Shown here one piece after another: positions 34,093 through 58,345 of a stretch of DNA of 58,764 nucleotides. The stretch's first letter is position 1. Each line of letters begins with the position of its first letter. The notes beneath the pieces were generated by a model. That model was given only the letters and a program-made list of their open reading frames with translations. It was not told the origin of the DNA and ran no database searches. This DNA comes from Candidatus Saccharimonadales bacterium (GTDB taxonomy: Bacteria; Patescibacteriota; Saccharimonadia; QS-5-54-17), in NCBI GenBank assembly GCA_040876925.1, contig JBBDOS010000009.1:1-58764 (forward strand), in the 5' to 3' direction. The translations under genes and the position numbers were made by a program.

Positions 34093-34170
34093 CTTAACAT
34101 ATTATCTAGACAAACATTTTGTCTGTAATATACTTAGTCACACTTAATAATTTAAATGAGCGTTTTAGAT

Positions 34171-34295
34171 TAATATGGTGAAGAGGGTGCAATTCTCTCA
34201 CTGTCGCGCAACGGTAAAAGTCCGAGCCCATATTACCTCTCTAGTTTGTTATGTACAAAGCAACTAGTAAAAAATCGCTAGACTCGCGTCAAGTC
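34171..34295 (+). promoter_or_regulatory. Cobalamin riboswitch (compact)
   Basis: TAATATGG/CCATATTA closing stem, GAGGGTGCAATTCTC T-loop hairpin, CTGTCGCGCAACGGTAA, AAGTCCGAG, and a downstream GACT-CGCGTCA-AGTC hairpin with CGCG complementary to L5. Confidence 0.85.
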
Positions 34296-36257: not shown

Positions 36258-36598
36258 GCAAGATTGCTGGATGACTGCCGCTAACTATAAGTTAAGCGGA
36301 GGAAAGTCCGGACAGCGTATGGGTAGGACGGTCGTTAACGGCGACCGGGAGCGATCCCAGGGAAAGTGCCACAGAAACAATACCGCCTCTTTGGAGGTAA
36401 GGGTGAAATGAGTAGGGTAAGAGCCTACAGCTATAGTAGGTGACTACTATAGAAGGTAAACCCCGTCCGCTGCAAGGAGCGAGTCGTTTATGCTTACCCA
36501 GGCGACGGCTTAGCACAATAACCGCTTGATTCTATTAGCAATAATAGGACTAGAGAGATAGTCATCTTTAACAGAATCCGGCTTACAGGTGATCTTGC
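36258..36598 (+). ncRNA. rnpB: RNase P RNA
   Basis: GAGGAAAGTCC, GAAAGTGCCACAGAAA, AAGGGTGAAA, GGTAAACCCC, ACAGAATCCGGCTTA; P1 GCAAGAT/ATCTTGC. Confidence 0.96.
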
Positions 36599-36600
36599 AT

Positions 36601-36631
36601 TAAATATACCCCTTATATAGGGGTATATTTA
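36601..36631. terminator. Hairpin between convergent rnpB and rplT
   Basis: Perfect 13-bp inverted repeat TAAATATACCCCT/AGGGGTATATTTA. Confidence 0.7.
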
Positions 36632-41033: not shown

Positions 41034-41441
41034 GGGGCTGAATTATATAGCTTCGACGTGAGTATTTTGACAACTTATCTAGCGAGTCGAGTTGGTTTAC
41101 GCGTTAGCTGAACCACTACAATAAATGCAAACGCATTTGATCGCGTAAGAGAAACTGTGGCTAGCTTTTTTGCTCCTCAGCTATCTTATGCAAAAGCTAT
41201 AGTTTAACTTATAGCCATCAGCAATGTGATTATCGAATAGCATTAACTGGTGTCATATTATTCGATGTAGGATAGATAGATTTGTTACTATCTACTATCT
41301 GAAATTTTTTGTGACTACAGACTTATTCTTATTTGTTGGTTTGAAATGAATGAGTTTGGAAATATTTTTAAACCAAATACACTCGTAGAAGGATAGGAAG
41401 TCAACTTGCGGACCGGGGTGCGATACCCCGCAGCTCCACCA
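41034..41441 (+). ncRNA. ssrA: tmRNA
   Basis: GGGGCTG/CAGCTCC-A-CCA acceptor stem with G3:U pair, TTCGAC after the D-like loop, AATAAAT-GCAAAC resume motif; tag ORF 41127-41207. Confidence 0.96.
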
Positions 41442-42004: not shown

Positions 42005-42095
42005 TTAAATAAAAGTAACGGCTTGGTGAAGCCGTTACTTAGGGAGCTTTATTTTACGTTTTTGTTTTTGAGCACTTTTATTATTCAAAGTGCTT
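42005..42095 (-). ncRNA. Candidate ~90-nt small RNA between ssrA and smpB
   Basis: TTGACA-N17-TATCTT promoter (42130-42102), 5' hairpin AGCACTTT/AAAGTGCT, A-rich linker ending CTCCCT, perfect 12-bp terminator; no ATG. Confidence 0.5.
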
Positions 42096-42193
42096 ATCTC
42101 TAAGATATACAACTCTTATGCTAGTGTCAACACTTTTTATAACTTTTTATATTTAATTTTTAAAAATATTTCAAACCCTATTATTTATTTGGC

Positions 42194-43640: not shown

Positions 43641-44729
43641 ATGGACTTATTTTTGATTATTGGTGGAATTATTTTAGCTGTTACCTTAGTAATACTATGG
43701 CAAAGCTGGTATGAAAAGAAACCAAAAGACAGTATGGTGTTGATACAGGAACAGCTCAATAACCTAACTACTAAAATAGACGATCAGCTTGATAGTTTAA
43801 CAACCAGAATAGATGGTCGAATAGATAAAGGTCAGACAGAAATGCAAAACTCTTTATCTAAACAGCTATCTGAATCGTCTAGATTAATCAAAGATGTTAC
43901 AGAGAGCCTCACCAAACTAGATGACACTAATAAACAAGTTATTAATGTAACCGACCAACTACAGTCACTGCAAGATATACTAAAAAACCCTAAGCAAAGA
44001 GGTGTTTTAGGGGAGTATTATCTTGAAACTGTGTTAAAAAACGTTTTACCACCAGAGCGTTTTGCGTTACAGCATTCATTAGGTAAGAATGAAGAAGGTA
44101 AAGATTTAATAGTAGATGCCGCCATATTTTTAGATAAGAACAAGGTACTGCCTATAGACTCTAAGTTTTCTCTGGAGAATTACAACAGGTTAGTTGCAAC
44201 CCATAGTAAGGTGGAAAAAGATAAACTAGAAAAAGCTTTTAGATCTGATTTGAAGAACAGAATAGATGAGACGGCTAAATACATTAATCCATCACTTAAC
44301 ACTATGGACTTTGCTTTTATGTTCATCCCCTCAGAAGGTGTTTATTACGACCTGTTAATCAACAAGGTTGGTGGCAATAGCTCATCAAGGGATTTAATAG
44401 AATATGCTTTTCAAGATAAGAAAGTAATTATAGTATCACCTACATCGTTCATGGCTTATCTCCAGACTGTCATGCAGGGCTTAAGAAGCTTGGAGATAGA
44501 AGAGAATGTAAGGACTATCCAAAAACAAGTATCTAACCTAAACAAGCATCTATTAACTCATAATGAATATATGGCAAAATTAGGAGGTTCTTTAGGCACT
44601 ACTGTTAATCACTACAATAAGACTTATAAGGAATTATCAAAGATAGACAAAGATGTTACTCGCATAGCAGGTACTGATTCAGTAGTTGATCCAGTTGTGA
44701 TTGAAAAACCACAAACCAGTGATGACTAA
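43641..44729 (+). CDS. rmuC: DNA recombination protein RmuC
   Basis: TM segment plus coiled coil, NPKQRGVLGE, VDAAI, PIDSKF, TMDFAFMFIPSEG, IVSPT. Confidence 0.93.
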   Translation: MDLFLIIGGIILAVTLVILWQSWYEKKPKDSMVLIQEQLNNLTTKIDDQLDSLTTRIDGRIDKGQTEMQNSLSKQLSESSRLIKDVTESLTKLDDTNKQVINVTDQLQSLQDILKNPKQRGVLGEYYLETVLKNVLPPERFALQHSLGKNEEGKDLIVDAAIFLDKNKVLPIDSKFSLENYNRLVATHSKVEKDKLEKAFRSDLKNRIDETAKYINPSLNTMDFAFMFIPSEGVYYDLLINKVGGNSSSRDLIEYAFQDKKVIIVSPTSFMAYLQTVMQGLRSLEIEENVRTIQKQVSNLNKHLLTHNEYMAKLGGSLGTTVNHYNKTYKELSKIDKDVTRIAGTDSVVDPVVIEKPQTSDD

Positions 44730-44877
44730 AATGATTATTCGTTAATCTTAAACAGCAACACCACCACGATGACTATATATTTAAAAACTATACAACTTCT
44801 ATAGTGTAGATAAATATACAACTTATTTTTATATAATAATGGTTGACAACGTGTAATTGTTATGCTAAGTTGTTTAT

Positions 44878-45275
44878 AAGCTTTTAATAAAAACAAAAAC
44901 GTTAAAATTAAAAGCAAACCTTAAAAAATATCTATAGACTAGCATCTAGATCTATGGATAAACCTCCTTTCTCTAATAGGCGTTTCGCTTTTTGGTAGGG
45001 CTCAATTAAGTGTTAGAATCTAGCACTTAGCTGGGCCTTACCAAACACCATTTTTAAGTGGTAGGGCGGCGTCTACGCCCAAAAAGCATCAGTTTGCTGG
45101 AGGGCGATAAGCCGTTTCGGTAGCTTGCTTTATCTTTTCGATAAGTTGCTCCGATCGGTTTCAACGACGGGGCGATAAGCGCTACATAATTTTAAATATC
45201 GGGCGGTTTTGTCGTCTCGTCTTTTCTTTTTTGAATACACACCCCTTAGCTACTTTAAAAGTCTAGGGGGTTTTT
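44878..45275 (+). ncRNA. Unassigned ~400-nt structured RNA or leader upstream of the pheST region
   Basis: TTGACA-N17-TAAGTT promoter with TATG (44843-71); several helices with G:U pairs on the plus strand; terminator CCCCTTAG/CTAGGGGG+TTTTT at 45242-75. Confidence 0.55.
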
Positions 45276-45336
45276 GATGATAGCTATATTATTTTATCAA
45301 GATTATAGTTAATATATTTTTGCTATACTACTACCT

Positions 45337-45693
45337 ATGTTAAGAAGATCTTATTTATTTGTTGGTATAGTGGTGCTACTGTTGTTTGCAACGTTAATTG
45401 TTAGCATGTTTATAACAAACCCAGATGAGCTAGGTCCATTCGGCCTCACTCTTTGGTTTTCTACTCTACTAACTGCTACAACTGGACTCTTGTGGATAAT
45501 CTTAACTAGTTTTATATACGGCAAGAGCAGAGAGGGGATGATGATAGCGCTAAGAAGATCATTTTTAATAAGTATGTGGGCTGTAGCTATTCTTGCTCTG
45601 AGCAGTTTGCGTCAACTCGGTATTAGAGATATCATTCTTTTAACTGTTTTGGGGCTGTTAATAGATTTTTATATGAAGCGAGTGCAGAAATGA
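45337..45693 (+). CDS. Hypothetical 4-TM membrane protein (CPR type)
   Basis: P.ELG..G..L.F, ALRRSFL, LALSSLRQL; overlaps pheS (ATGA). Confidence 0.65.
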   Translation: MLRRSYLFVGIVVLLLFATLIVSMFITNPDELGPFGLTLWFSTLLTATTGLLWIILTSFIYGKSREGMMIALRRSFLISMWAVAILALSSLRQLGIRDIILLTVLGLLIDFYMKRVQK

Positions 45694-49522: not shown

Positions 49523-49561
49523 TTGCCAGTTCTGCCCTCTAGCAGCTATACTGAATTTAGC

Positions 49562-49969
49562 ATGACTCAGCCATCACAAAACCCAGAATCAGCTCCAAAC
49601 CTTCCAGAGCAATACGATTTTCCTCAACTTAAAGAGGAGCACCAGCCATTAGCAGGAGAAGTTTATGAGCCGGGAGCGGAACGACAGGCAGAACAGAACG
49701 TAGAAACTGATGTCAGCGATAGTCAGGTCCAAGCACCTATTAATGATGATACTAATGATTCAACTGATTTACCCAAGCATGTAGTAGTTGCTGATATTCC
49801 GGACGTGGCTGATGATATAGATGTTATAGAAAAAGCCTGGGTAGATAGAGCTAAACAGATTATAAAAGAAAATAAGGATGATCCCAGGTCCCAGGAAGAA
49901 GCTTTCGAGCAATTACAGATTGAATATCATAAAAAGCGCTATGGGCGTGACATTAAGGCTAAAAGGTAG
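49562..49969 (+). CDS. Hypothetical protein (low-complexity N-terminus, helical C-terminal domain)
   Basis: DDIDVIEKAWVDRAKQII...DDP..QEE....LQIEYHKKRYGR; start set at ATG 49562. Confidence 0.65.
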   Translation: MTQPSQNPESAPNLPEQYDFPQLKEEHQPLAGEVYEPGAERQAEQNVETDVSDSQVQAPINDDTNDSTDLPKHVVVADIPDVADDIDVIEKAWVDRAKQIIKENKDDPRSQEEAFEQLQIEYHKKRYGRDIKAKR

Positions 49970-49980
49970 CAATAATATTT

Positions 49981-52653
49981 ATGGGTGCCTTAACGCTCTT
50001 TATTTTGATGACGATAATAACACTAACTGTAATAACAGCAGCATTTGTTATTTATAGAAAGGGCTTAAGGTTTGCTAAAGGAGTAGAAAGAGGCATTAAG
50101 ATGGTGCCCATACTTATTAATTTGCCGCCTTCAAGTGAGGATATAGAAGTAGGCCAGAGGGATATACGTGATGTTATTCAAGAAAGAATTTCGCAAGCTG
50201 AGGTGTTATACAGTTTAATAGCTGGTACTACCACCAAAGGTTTTAAAAGCAAGTTTTTTGGCCAGAGACATATAGGTTTTGAAATTGTTGCTATAAATGG
50301 CACTATACGTCTTTATGCGGCTGTGCCTGTGGCATTGGTTTCGGTGGTTAAACAAGCTATCTTAACTGCTTATCCTGGAGCTCAACTAGATGAAGTTGAG
50401 GATCATAATATTTTTTCTGATGTAGGCAAAATAAGCGGTACTTATGGTGGTGAGATTAAACTTAAACAGCCATACTCTTACCCCATATCTACTGCTCAAC
50501 AACTTAAACGTGATGCTATGCAGGCCATTATAAAAGCCTTAGCTAGTATCGACCAAGGTGATGGTGCTAGTTTACAGATACTAATTCGTCCAGCTAGGAA
50601 TAATTGGACTAAAGTATCTGAGAGTTTAGTAAAGAAGAAGCGTGAGGATAAAGATAAATCGGGTGTTTCGGTTAAAGACTTAATTAAAGCTCCATTTAGG
50701 GCTCCTGACGGGGGAGGTGAAGGGGATAAGCCATCAAAACCACCTAAACAATTAAGCAACTTAGAACAAACAACACTCGATTTGATAGAGGAAAAAACTA
50801 GATCTCCTGGATATGAAACATTAATCAGAGTCGTCTCGTCATCTTCAACAGCAGCTAAATCCCAAGCTATTACTAGCAATATTGTTTCTGCATTTTCATT
50901 GTTTGACGCTCCTGGGCTTAACGGATTTAAGTTTGAAGCAGCTAAGAATATAGAGAACTTTGTTACGGATTTCATCTTTCGATTCTTTCCTCCCGAAAAG
51001 AACAAGATGATATTAAGTAGTGTTGAATTAGCATCACTATTCCATTTACCAGATGATCAGTTTGCTAAAACAGCTAAACTGGAAAGACAGTCATCCAAAC
51101 AGGTTGAGGGCCCCACAAAAGTTAGTCAAGACGGTTTATTGCTAGGGCATAACACTTATCATGAGGTACAAAAAGAAATACGTCTTAGTGATGAGGACCG
51201 CCGCCGCCACTTATATATTGTAGGACAAACTGGTACGGGTAAAACTACAGTACTATCTAATTTGATGGTTCAAGATATGGTTGCTGGTAAGGGCTTTGCT
51301 TTTATAGACCCCCATGGTGATGAAGCGGAGAATTTACTAGGCATGGTGCCGAAGAGCAGAATGGAAGACGTTATATATTTTGATCCAGCCCATATCAATC
51401 ATCCAGTAGGTCTTAATCTATTCGAGCACCACACTGAAGATCAAAAAGACTTTTTAATTCAAGAAGCAATTAATATGCTTTATAGGCTATATGATCCACA
51501 ACATACTGGGATAATAGGTCCTAGATATGAGCACTTATTTAGAAATGCTGCATTGGTTGTAATGGCTGATCCCGATGGTGGGACATTTGTAGATATTCCT
51601 AAATTATTCAGAGATCCGCAATTCGTGCGACAAAAACTGGAACACGTACAAGATCAGTCCGTAAGAGAATTTTGGCAAAAAGAAATGCCACAATCTCAGC
51701 GATCTAATGATTTTGGTGAGGTGGTTAGCTGGTTTGTCTCTAAATTTGGGGCTTTCTTGAATAACCAATTAATGCGCAATACGATCGGCCAAGCTAAAAG
51801 TGCCTTTGATTTAAGAGAAGTTATGGATGGCAATAAAATATTAATAGCTAATTTGAGCAAAGGTCGTTTAGGTGAGCTTAACTCTCAATTACTAGGTATG
51901 ATATTTGTAATGAAGTTTCAGGCTGCAGCCATGAGTAGGGCTAATATACCTGAGTCCGAGCGAAAAGACTTCTCCCTCTATGTAGATGAGTTTCAGAACT
52001 TTTCAACAGAATCTTTTGCTTTTATTCTTTCAGAAGCTCGTAAATATCGTCTAAGCTTGATTGTAGCTAACCAATTTATTTCTCAACTAAGTGAGGAAGT
52101 AAGAGATGCAGTATTTGGTAATGTTGGTACGGTTTTAAGTTTTCGTACAGGCCCAGCAGATGCGGACTTTTTAGTTAAACAGTTTTCTCCTTCTTTTAAT
52201 GAGCATGATTTAGTTAATCTACCTAACTTTAATGCAGTTGTGCGCTTAATGCATGAAGGGTTGCCCAGCAAGCCATTTAATATCATGACGCTGCCTCCAT
52301 TAGCTCAATCTAATAAACAAGTATCCACAGCTCTCAAGCATCTATCAGGTGCTAAATACGGCAGACCTCGCTTACAAGTAGAGGAAGAGATATTTAATCG
52401 TCTTTCTACTAAATCTACTCCCAATCCTTTTGAGAGTTTAGCTAACACTCAGGGTCTAGGTGATAAGGGTTCAACCCAGGGTTCATCTAATAACCCTAAG
52501 CAGCAAACAAGTTCTTCTTTTCTTGATGAGTGGCTTGAAAAACGAAAGAAGGTTATGGATAATAAGCCGTCAACTTCTACTACAGATTCAGATAGTCAAA
52601 ACACCTTACCAGAGCTTGATGATAATAAGAATATTAATTCTGATAATAACTAA
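49981..52653 (+). CDS. VirD4/TraD/HerA-like (DUF87) membrane-anchored ATPase
   Basis: N-terminal TM segment, RRRHLYIVGQTGTGKT (Walker A), FIDPHGD, LYVDEFQNF (Walker B), EARKYRL, ANQFISQL. Confidence 0.85.
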   Translation: MGALTLFILMTIITLTVITAAFVIYRKGLRFAKGVERGIKMVPILINLPPSSEDIEVGQRDIRDVIQERISQAEVLYSLIAGTTTKGFKSKFFGQRHIGFEIVAINGTIRLYAAVPVALVSVVKQAILTAYPGAQLDEVEDHNIFSDVGKISGTYGGEIKLKQPYSYPISTAQQLKRDAMQAIIKALASIDQGDGASLQILIRPARNNWTKVSESLVKKKREDKDKSGVSVKDLIKAPFRAPDGGGEGDKPSKPPKQLSNLEQTTLDLIEEKTRSPGYETLIRVVSSSSTAAKSQAITSNIVSAFSLFDAPGLNGFKFEAAKNIENFVTDFIFRFFPPEKNKMILSSVELASLFHLPDDQFAKTAKLERQSSKQVEGPTKVSQDGLLLGHNTYHEVQKEIRLSDEDRRRHLYIVGQTGTGKTTVLSNLMVQDMVAGKGFAFIDPHGDEAENLLGMVPKSRMEDVIYFDPAHINHPVGLNLFEHHTEDQKDFLIQEAINMLYRLYDPQHTGIIGPRYEHLFRNAALVVMADPDGGTFVDIPKLFRDPQFVRQKLEHVQDQSVREFWQKEMPQSQRSNDFGEVVSWFVSKFGAFLNNQLMRNTIGQAKSAFDLREVMDGNKILIANLSKGRLGELNSQLLGMIFVMKFQAAAMSRANIPESERKDFSLYVDEFQNFSTESFAFILSEARKYRLSLIVANQFISQLSEEVRDAVFGNVGTVLSFRTGPADADFLVKQFSPSFNEHDLVNLPNFNAVVRLMHEGLPSKPFNIMTLPPLAQSNKQVSTALKHLSGAKYGRPRLQVEEEIFNRLSTKSTPNPFESLANTQGLGDKGSTQGSSNNPKQQTSSSFLDEWLEKRKKVMDNKPSTSTTDSDSQNTLPELDDNKNINSDNN

Positions 52654-58142: not shown

Positions 58143-58345
58143 AACTCTTGCACAACTTAGCAGGTGGCTAATTACTATAAGTGACTTAACTATAGTAGAG
58201 CTCCTATTTAAGAAGTGAGGTACTTTGATAATTTGGACTGTGCAGTGTAACCGTAATTAAACTACTTTTAAGTAGTGGATACACGTTTTTTGCACATTGT
58301 ACGTTAAAACAATGTCAGTCAAAATTTTGAGCAATCAAATTCAAT

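Follow-up and report, generated by a model that had tools for sequence, protein, structure and literature searches.

An undescribed structured RNA, probably single-copy and near-universal in Saccharibacteria

The DNA considered here is a stretch of 58,764 nucleotides (nt), the window, from a Candidatus Saccharimonadales bacterium (assembly GCA_040876925.1, contig JBBDOS010000009.1), and the region analysed is 44843-45275 of its plus strand; all coordinates are window positions. Judged by its sequence, the interval from 44877 to about 45275 on this strand constitutes an independent gene encoding a structured non-coding RNA, with its own promoter and its own intrinsic terminator. The RNA belongs to an undescribed family that probably occurs, in a single copy, in nearly all Saccharibacteria (class Saccharimonadia), and covariation supports its secondary structure. 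A sequence-only reading of the same DNA had favoured a stand-alone, undescribed structured RNA of about 400 nt, a view upheld by the missing match in Rfam, the separate promoter and terminator, the single copy, the covarying helices and the class-wide distribution. Nearly all the features listed in that reading are present, at the positions it gave or within 1-2 nt of them, and the size of about 400 nt holds for one size variant and not for the family, which extends from about 130 to more than 450 nt.

A search of the full-text literature found no description of this RNA. The genome announcement of an oral Saccharibacterium lists only 2 annotated non-coding RNAs (PMC8830319), which is consistent with neither the new RNA nor the RNA of the signal recognition particle (SRP) being annotated there. 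New in this work are the link between the long forms of the RNA and a minimal form of about 130 nt, the figures for its distribution across the class, the covariation measured on a neutral alignment, the rejection of a link to pheST and the exclusion of SRP RNA.

Gene unit, distribution and covariation

The RNA occurs once in the 696-kb genome under study (G000); G002, G003 and G004 denote other members of its family. Two elements delimit the gene:

44843-44871, plus strand: sigma-70-type promoter, with the -35 box TTGACA (44843-48), a spacer N17 and the extended -10 element TG-c-TAAGTT (44863-71)
45242-45275, plus strand: intrinsic terminator, a GC-rich hairpin CCCCUUAG...CUAGGGGG followed by the U-tract UUUUU

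The hexamer TAAGTT lies at 44866-71, the TG at 44863-64 makes it an extended -10 element, and transcription is predicted to start at about 44877-79. A scanner for consensus promoters did not list 44843-71, because TAAGTT agrees with TATAAT at only 3/6 positions; conservation among relatives shows that the promoter is real despite this omission. The arrangement TTGACA-N17-TGCTAAnTT is common to all eight members of the family (8/8), so that the TTGACA-N17-TAAGTT promoter named by the sequence-only reading is both legible and conserved, and TTGAC(A/T)-N17 with a -10 element precedes nearly all of 74 homologues, at 89-128 nt from the core in the short forms and 150-412 nt in the long ones. The terminator, which the same reading had also placed at 45242-75, has counterparts of unrelated sequence at the same place in 7/8 family members, G003 having none. 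A scan flagged a terminator-like hairpin 3′ of the RNA's own 3′ hairpin (P8) in 56/74 homologues; about 50 of these 56 are separate hairpins, 16-63 nt past P8, and the remainder are the 3′ hairpin itself.

Between the promoter and the terminator hairpin lies a stretch of about 345 nt that is poor in open reading frames (ORFs), and no reading frame is conserved in the RNA. The minimum free energy (MFE) of the plus strand is -149.4 kcal/mol, with a z-score of -10.6 relative to dinucleotide shuffles and 0/100 shuffles as good, while the minus strand reaches -109 kcal/mol and a z-score of -4.6.

BLAST comparison with the relatives found the RNA in 8/8 species of its family, always with the conserved blocks in the same order. 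Two covariance models were used across the class: R1, of the 3′ half of the RNA, and R2, built from short forms, P8 being the core of both. R1, which matches this genome at 45075-45224 with 131.5 bits, gives exactly one match per genome in 132/401 genomes of the class, representing 109/186 genera and about 50 families. In a phylum-wide sample, R2 matched 14 of about 26 genomes of the class and only 4 of about 373 genomes outside it, all of these weakly. Both models undercount the family, since divergent copies could be recognised in 15/20 genomes missed by R1 and R2 when the downstream gene for a protein with four transmembrane helices (4-TM) served as an anchor. Long forms with variant 3′ hairpins (AGGCGCC..GGGUGCUUCU; GUGUGCC..GGGCAGAUACG) are found in the families labelled f5, f3, f16, f8 and f19, and f6 shares with this genome's family the 5′ hairpin AAGCUUUU...AAAAGC...CCUUAACA, together with a GAGCGGUCAG element.

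Other collections added little to this picture. The RNA was not matched in 50,697 phage records; a first pattern scan of metagenomes found no more family members, and a second one returned 120 chance 15-mer matches, of which 80 were scored and 0/80 fit the RNA model. A protein-anchored search of genome contigs led only to a sister species, labelled as a Candidatus Saccharibacteria metagenome-assembled genome. A repeated element resembling a miniature inverted-repeat transposable element (MITE), one of the outcomes that the sequence-only reading had named as fatal to its own proposal, was rejected along with any other mobile repeat: there is 1 copy in 696 kb, one match per class genome, and the locus is syntenic.

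From promoter to terminator, 74 full units were extracted; around a fixed core, their sizes range from about 130 nt to more than 450 nt. Three parts make up this shared core: a 5′ hairpin whose loop shows AAAACAAAAAC, the element CGCUC/GAGCG-GUCAGUC, and AAGCGCU...AGCGGAUUU as the 3′ hairpin. In the minimal form, GUAAGU and CUUAC enclose CAAAAACAAAAA and are followed by an A-rich linker; then A-CGCUC and GAGCG-GUCAGUCA flank a hairpin with the loop CCUAAAGG; and the 3′ part reads AAGCC-nn-GGACGGUAAG-CGCU-(15-20-nt AU-rich loop)-AGCG-GAUU-UACCGUCC-GGCU, after which comes the terminator. No conserved small ORF was found in the short forms: the frame MDGKR..., for example, starts within the 3′ stem, and its AUG is replaced in relatives. 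The longer forms carry extra domains inserted between the 5′ hairpin and the core, which in this genome's family are the hairpin Hp2, a CCUCC strand, a long GGUAGGGCC hairpin, a GGUAGGGCG hairpin and a GGAGG strand. The RNA of this genome is therefore one size variant, of about 345 nt to the end of P8 and about 400 nt with the terminator.

Covariation was assessed with 47 distinct short-form cores, aligned by plain MAFFT and without any fitting to a structure. In this alignment the proposed core pairs hold in 95.5% of the cells, and sliding the 3′ partners by 1-3 columns lowers the figure to 32-48%; two-sided changes occur at 14/23 pairs, in 127 cells, and 0/500 shuffles reach any of these measures. 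All pairs of the inner hairpin of the CGCUC[hairpin]GAGCG-GUCAGUC element covary (5/5), as do 7/9 pairs of the long P8 stem. The inner CGCU/AGCG of P8 is invariant at 3/4 pairs in the 47 sequences, and over CGCUC/GAGCG and CGCU/AGCG together 4/9 pairs never vary, the others departing in no more than 8 sequences. This near-invariance points to sequence-specific recognition of these core elements, beyond the mere formation of helices. A mutual-information scan of 48 short forms recovered the same helices independently, together with one non-canonical A.G<->C.U covariation where the 3′ loop closes, and it gave no additional long-range or pseudoknot pairs. The collection of homologues and the search for covariation proposed in the sequence-only reading have in this way yielded a class-wide family with a covarying structure.

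Anatomy of the 44877-45275 RNA

Between its promoter and its terminator, the RNA of this genome contains the following elements:

44878-44915, plus strand: P1, the 5′ hairpin, GCUUUUAAU/AUUAAAAGC closing an A/C-rich loop with AAAAACAAAAAC (44889-900)
44930-44959, plus strand: Hp2, a hairpin AUCUAUAGAcUAG / CUAGaUCUAUGGAU, present in the MFE fold
44962-44972, plus strand: the CCUCC strand, ACCUCCUUUCU, whose CCUCC (44963-67) pairs with GGAGG (45099-103) in the MFE fold
44994-45042, plus strand: P4, a long hairpin GGUAGGGCU.../...GGGCCUUACC with a variable capping helix
45060-45080, plus strand: P5, a GGUA-GGGCG...CGCCC hairpin with the second GGUAGGGC copy, arms 45064-68 / 45076-80
45085-45112, plus strand: P6, a mini-hairpin AGCA/UGCU followed by the invariant GCUGGAGGGCGA
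45109-45161, plus strand: P7, a variable hairpin, the version of the relatives ending GCCAGUC / GAGCGGCCGACC
45166-45221, plus strand: P8, the class-wide 3′ hairpin, GACGGGGCGAUAAG-CGCU-(18-nt AU-rich loop)-GGCG-GUU-UUGUCGUCUCGUC

The family-specific helices rest on few sequences, the family consisting of eight species, and every one of them shows compensatory changes; Hp2, the P4 cap, P7 and P8 all keep their pairing through different sequences. The arms of P1 are invariant in the family, and its loop varies from 20 to 50 nt; its equivalent in the short forms is the GUAAGU/CUUAC hairpin around CAAAAACAAAAA. At Hp2, 8/8 members form a hairpin from differing sequences, so the changes there are compensatory. 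The long-range CCUCC/GGAGG pairing, which closes a multi-helix junction, is conserved in 7/8 species and absent from the short forms; in G002 its register is shifted to CCCUC/GAGGG. P4, which folds alone at -30 kcal/mol, has an outer 9 bp that is conserved and a cap that differs in every species yet still pairs, and its equivalent in the long forms of other families is GGUAGGGU..CACCCUAC. Structured insertions of about 40 nt lie between the arms of P5 in G004 and G002, and UUGCUGGAGGGCG at P6 is invariant in the 7 family members aligned. The GCCAGUC / GAGCGGCCGACC ending of P7 in the relatives corresponds to the CGCUC[hairpin]GAGCG-GUCAGUC element found class-wide, and P8 contains an asymmetric internal loop (G versus GAU/GUU).

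Every helix that the sequence-only reading had named is found in the MFE structure. Its hairpin at 44929-60 corresponds to Hp2; its helix 44992-45003 / 45033-44 with the capping stem corresponds to the covarying P4; its GGGCG/CGCCC pairing gives the arms of P5, with the large insertions of two species between them; and its CCTCC/GGAGG pairing is the junction-closing contact just described, the eighth species showing the register shift. Three other proposals survive in part. GCTTT/AAAGC pairs in this genome and is not conserved beyond it. The internal repeats exist, UGGUAGGGC and GGGCGAUAAGC twice each, and only their GGUAGGGC and GGGCGA parts are conserved. As for the stretch said to resemble an anti-Shine-Dalgarno sequence, ACCUCCUUUCU is indeed there, and the resemblance is probably incidental.

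Relation to known RNAs and to pheST

No family of Rfam 15 fits the RNA, either at the gathering threshold over the whole window or at E<=10 over 44650-45450, so the Rfam check suggested at the outset returned no known family. At E<=0.1, six homologous loci, short forms included, gave only chance hairpin matches (mir-3479, E 0.002; ncr1175, E 0.017). OLE RNA (RF01071) has no match in the region at E<=10, nor in six related loci at E<=0.1. The 6S model (RF00013) matches neither G000 at E<=1 nor the region at E<=10, and an identity as 6S RNA was rejected on the missing match and on the wrong architecture.

An identity as SRP RNA was considered because RF00169 is undetectable in the class: there are 0 matches at E<=1 in G000 and in 31 class genomes, with 13/14 controls positive. 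The M domain of Ffh (PF02978) is also absent from G000, the SRP54 GTPase domain (PF00448) gives only weak matches confined to the P-loop in 21 class genomes, and a six-frame motif scan found no ORF with DTAGR or TKxD and hence no SRP-type GTPase. The identity was rejected since Ffh and FtsY are missing as well. To judge from these searches, the SRP pathway appears to be absent from the whole class, and the full-text literature contained no report of SRP loss in Saccharibacteria.

In Bacillota the usual leader of pheST is a T-box riboswitch (RF00230), and the new RNA resembles it in that, within this one family, pheS is preceded by a structured RNA and its terminator. The differences are these: RF00230 has no match at the gathering threshold in the window or at E<=10 over 44650-45450; a T-box sequence (AAnnnGGGUGGUACCGCG-like) is not present in the sequence as read, nor is there specifier architecture, in agreement with the earlier remark that no T-box consensus is visible; the RNA and the operon are separated by another promoter; and the link to pheST is not conserved. 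The proposal that the RNA attenuates pheST in response to phenylalanine, through a leader peptide like that of pheM or by binding tRNA-Phe, draws on the position of the RNA, about 400 nt upstream of pheS in this family, and on a 14-codon upstream ORF (44954-98) that contains 3 Phe codons here. This ORF exists as the sequence-only reading described it, but conservation is lacking: the ATG reads ACG in the closest relative, and in other relatives the site holds unrelated sequence. Downstream pheST genes are found only in the long-form families, most families being without them, and no pheST comes after the RNA and its 4-TM neighbour in the short-form families. The 4-TM-pheS operon has its own promoter, the terminators are unrelated between species, and no conserved pairing competing with the terminator was seen. 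Synteny and the non-conserved ORF led us to reject a T-box or pheM-type attenuator, including the non-T-box version offered as the alternative in the sequence-only reading, and an attenuator of this kind is now extremely improbable. As far as gene order and sequence conservation tell, the RNA neither senses phenylalanine nor controls pheST.

By analogy, the closest known system is OLE RNA with its protein OapA. Both RNAs are lineage-restricted, single-copy and ornately structured, without a known catalytic or regulatory target, and both are encoded directly upstream of, and on the same strand as, the gene of a co-conserved small 4-TM protein, a comparison made by position and number of transmembrane helices. 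The differences are also clear: RF01071 shows no match of sequence or structure to the new RNA; OLE occurs in Bacillota and the new RNA in Patescibacteria; OLE measures roughly 600 nt, the new RNA about 130 to more than 450 nt; and whereas ole and oapA are co-transcribed, the new RNA has its own terminator and the 4-TM gene, at least in this family, its own leaderless promoter. With the raiA motif, ROOL, GOLLD and HEARO RNAs the new RNA shares a definition by conservation and covariation, a strong structure and a function initially unknown, and none of them matches it; ROOL, GOLLD and HEARO are linked to phages or mobile elements, whereas the new RNA is single-copy, with no phage match and a fixed synteny. 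RNase P RNA, SRP RNA and tmRNA resemble it in their one copy per genome, strong promoter, invariant internal loops within covarying helices and large insertions at fixed points. The window has separate genes for RNase P RNA (36259-36601) and tmRNA (41034-41441), and an identity as SRP RNA is excluded because Ffh and FtsY are missing from the class.

The locus, a possible role and its meaning

The gene that follows the RNA is the one used above as an anchor:

45337-45693 (45321-45693 with its promoter), plus strand: 4-TM gene from the ORF listing, 118 amino acids (aa), four transmembrane helices, apparently leaderless

An extended -10 element, TGCTATACT, lies at 45321-29, 7 nt 5′ of the ATG at 45337, and TGnTATACT stands 6-9 nt before the ATG in 7/7 readable members of the family, which indicates a leaderless 4-TM mRNA with its own promoter and vindicates the -10 box that had been suspected for the downstream gene. 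The stop codon of the 4-TM gene overlaps the start of pheS (ATGA at 45690-93). A 4-TM homologue is the first downstream ORF at 71/83 loci, and the protein (~118 aa) is single-copy in 145/151 class genomes. It belongs to no Pfam family; its model (pLDDT 93) is a confident four-helix bundle, for which a fold search against the PDB gave no match with E<1. Conservation across the class includes the invariant residues D98 and Y112 and the TNP and QSxGQLTxRD motifs.

The 4-TM gene keeps its place next to the RNA in genomes that differ in their upstream neighbours (among them rmuC and smpB) and in whether pheST is inserted downstream. The block consists of the RNA, the 4-TM gene, pheST in some families, a 148-aa gene, an ATPase gene, gyrBA and the rRNA operon, and its conservation explains why many family matches lie 11-13 kb from a contig end; here the 16S gene, at the contig end, begins 13.4 kb further downstream. 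In the window, 49523-52653 (plus strand) encodes the 148-aa protein, which has no Pfam family, and then an 890-aa P-loop ATPase (49981) with weak TraG/VirD4/TrwB/HerA-like matches. This gene pair is conserved class-wide and follows the RNA and the 4-TM gene directly where the pheST insertion is missing, as in the short-form families, in which the homologues of 49523 and 49981 come next.

Upstream of the gyrBA-rRNA block, the RNase P RNA, the tmRNA, the new RNA (44877-45275) and a further small unit at 42.0-42.1 kb all lie within 9 kb. The window also contains a match to the AdoCbl-II (cobalamin) riboswitch aptamer at 34161-34238 (plus strand), with 48 bits versus a gathering score of 36.5; the aptamer thus occurs in a 0.7-Mb genome of the candidate phyla radiation.

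The A/C-rich motif of the 5′ loop, (C)AAAAACAAAA(AC), is an 11-mer with 9 copies in the 0.7-Mb G000 versus about 1 expected, among them C4:81763, C9 (the window):35548 and C4:94755. In at least three 5′ untranslated regions (5′ UTRs) and in two other small transcription units, a copy is found 10-35 nt past a promoter, and several more copies are Lys/Thr/Gln-rich coding sequence. To go by these positions, the motif may be a lineage-specific leader element. Its interpretation as an antitermination boxA was rejected, because a canonical boxA-like sequence, CUUUGAUAAUUU, stands in the rRNA leader at ~58223-58234.

The first of the two small units, at 42008-42130 of the minus strand, has TTGACA at 42130-25, a hairpin AGCACUUU-GAAUAAUA-AAAGUGCU, then CAAAAACAAAAAC and a second hairpin, GUAACGGCUUCACCAAGCCGUUAC, with a U-tract. 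It has no Rfam match (GibS, E 0.06, is a chance one). With its own promoter and the A/C motif it is found in at least 30 other class genomes, usually divergent from the promoter of the main RNA, and it may be a leader rather than a free small RNA because CCAUGAAAA follows the second hairpin in most genomes. The other unit, on contig C11 of G000 at ~50150-50320 (minus strand), runs from a promoter TTGACT-N17-TGCTAAAAT and a 5′ AUAAAACAAAAACC through a GCUUAGG..CCUAAAGC hairpin to a terminator CAACGUUUCAUAUGAAACGUGUUUUU, and carries the same A/C motif.

What could such an RNA do? We see an even chance that this independent, undescribed, class-wide gene encodes a trans-acting housekeeping RNA, the protein-binding scaffold of a ribonucleoprotein (RNP). 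It would act in trans, as the abundant RNA subunit of the particle. Its docking sites would be the nearly invariant asymmetric internal loop of the 3′ hairpin, AAG-CGCU/AGCG-GAUUU, and the GUCAGUC junction, with the twin CGCU(C)...(G)AGCG-G helices also among the recognition elements, and the variable domains would be additions that the particle tolerates, a pattern known from RNase P, SRP and tmRNA. The 4-TM protein encoded directly downstream would be the candidate partner or associate, in parallel to OLE RNA and OapA. Several points weigh against this proposal. The ends and the abundance of the transcript are predictions from sequence alone; the motif of the 3′ hairpin is not strictly invariant, given the variants of f5, f3/f16 and f6; and the protein partner is a candidate only. 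The TNP and QSxGQLTxRD motifs are predicted, from the model and the positive-inside rule, to sit in loops facing the outside of the cell, and direct binding of the RNA through them is therefore not favoured. Saccharibacteria keep their gene order unusually well (PMC10768705), so that adjacency alone says little about whether the RNA and the 4-TM gene are functionally linked. For these last two reasons, the version with a membrane RNP, drawn from the OLE analogy, is held as a sub-hypothesis only, and its boldest form, a lineage-specific membrane RNP of the RNA and the 4-TM protein that would, in cells without an SRP pathway, carry out part of the delivery or organisation of membrane-protein synthesis or serve another core membrane function, is very unlikely. 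Finally, at some short-form loci the 4-TM gene starts 10-30 nt past the terminator without a convincing separate promoter, and co-transcription by read-through is possible there.

These short-form loci are also among the arguments for a cis-acting leader or attenuator of the 4-TM gene (here of the 4-TM-pheS-pheT operon), in which the terminator would be the point of regulated read-through, in riboswitch fashion or depending on a protein. The RNA and the 4-TM gene always share a strand, the RNA coming immediately before the gene, and the terminator stands between them. The promoter-like TGnTATACT before the ATG in this family speaks against such a leader, as do the terminators, which are unrelated between species and share no conserved antiterminator pairing with the core, and the linker between P8 and terminator, which varies from 16 to 63 nt; the near-consensus promoter suggests constitutive expression, and expansion domains of 0-300 nt would be unusual for an aptamer. 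A leader in cis seems unlikely on balance, and we hold a similarly low expectation for a decoy or base-pairing regulator, whose exposed AAAACAAAAAC loop would imitate a motif present close to the 5′ ends of several transcripts in these genomes and would titrate the factor that binds this motif, as CsrB or 6S do, or would pair with U/G-rich targets. The conservation of the loop motif from short to long forms, its excess of copies, some of them just downstream of promoters in 5′ UTRs, and the second small unit conserved in at least 30 genomes all fit this idea. They are set against copies that are plain coding sequence, long forms of some families that have only a degenerate motif, and the exclusion of a boxA role; no binding factor is known, and the invariant 3′ hairpin would be left unexplained.

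An analogue of 6S RNA, which would bind the RNA polymerase holoenzyme and mimic a melted -10 element with its AU-rich 3′ loop (beginning UAnAUA), has in its favour a single-copy, class-wide, strongly promoted RNA, plausibly abundant and constitutive, in a genome where RF00013 is undetectable, and a loop whose 5′ part is semi-conserved (UAAAUAGU, UAUAUAAU, UACAUAAU). Yet the structure is a covarying set of several hairpins, unlike the rod of 6S RNA with its paired 5′ and 3′ ends and its two-stranded bubble in the middle, the AU-rich loop is terminal and not internal, and no match to the 6S model appears at E<=10; we regard this role as quite improbable. Our preferred proposal is the trans-acting scaffold RNA described above.

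The apparently separate "large RNAs" of 350-540 nt are unified here with a minimal form of about 130 nt, which identifies the elements likely to bear the function. The core, of about 100 nt, is small enough for direct biochemistry, and the function of the RNA is testable, since cultivable and genetically tractable Saccharibacteria exist. The apparent class-wide absence of the SRP raises the question of how membrane proteins are targeted in these cells; if true, a membrane RNP standing in for part of the SRP pathway would be a new RNA-based cellular machine rather than a regulator. The hosts are epibiotic Saccharibacteria with genomes of 0.6-1 Mb, among the most strongly reduced and most poorly understood lineages of bacteria, in which little non-essential sequence is expected to survive. 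Structured RNAs that occur once per genome across a whole bacterial class are rare, and the known class-wide single-copy RNAs, namely RNase P RNA, SRP RNA, tmRNA and 6S RNA, belong to the core machinery of the cell.

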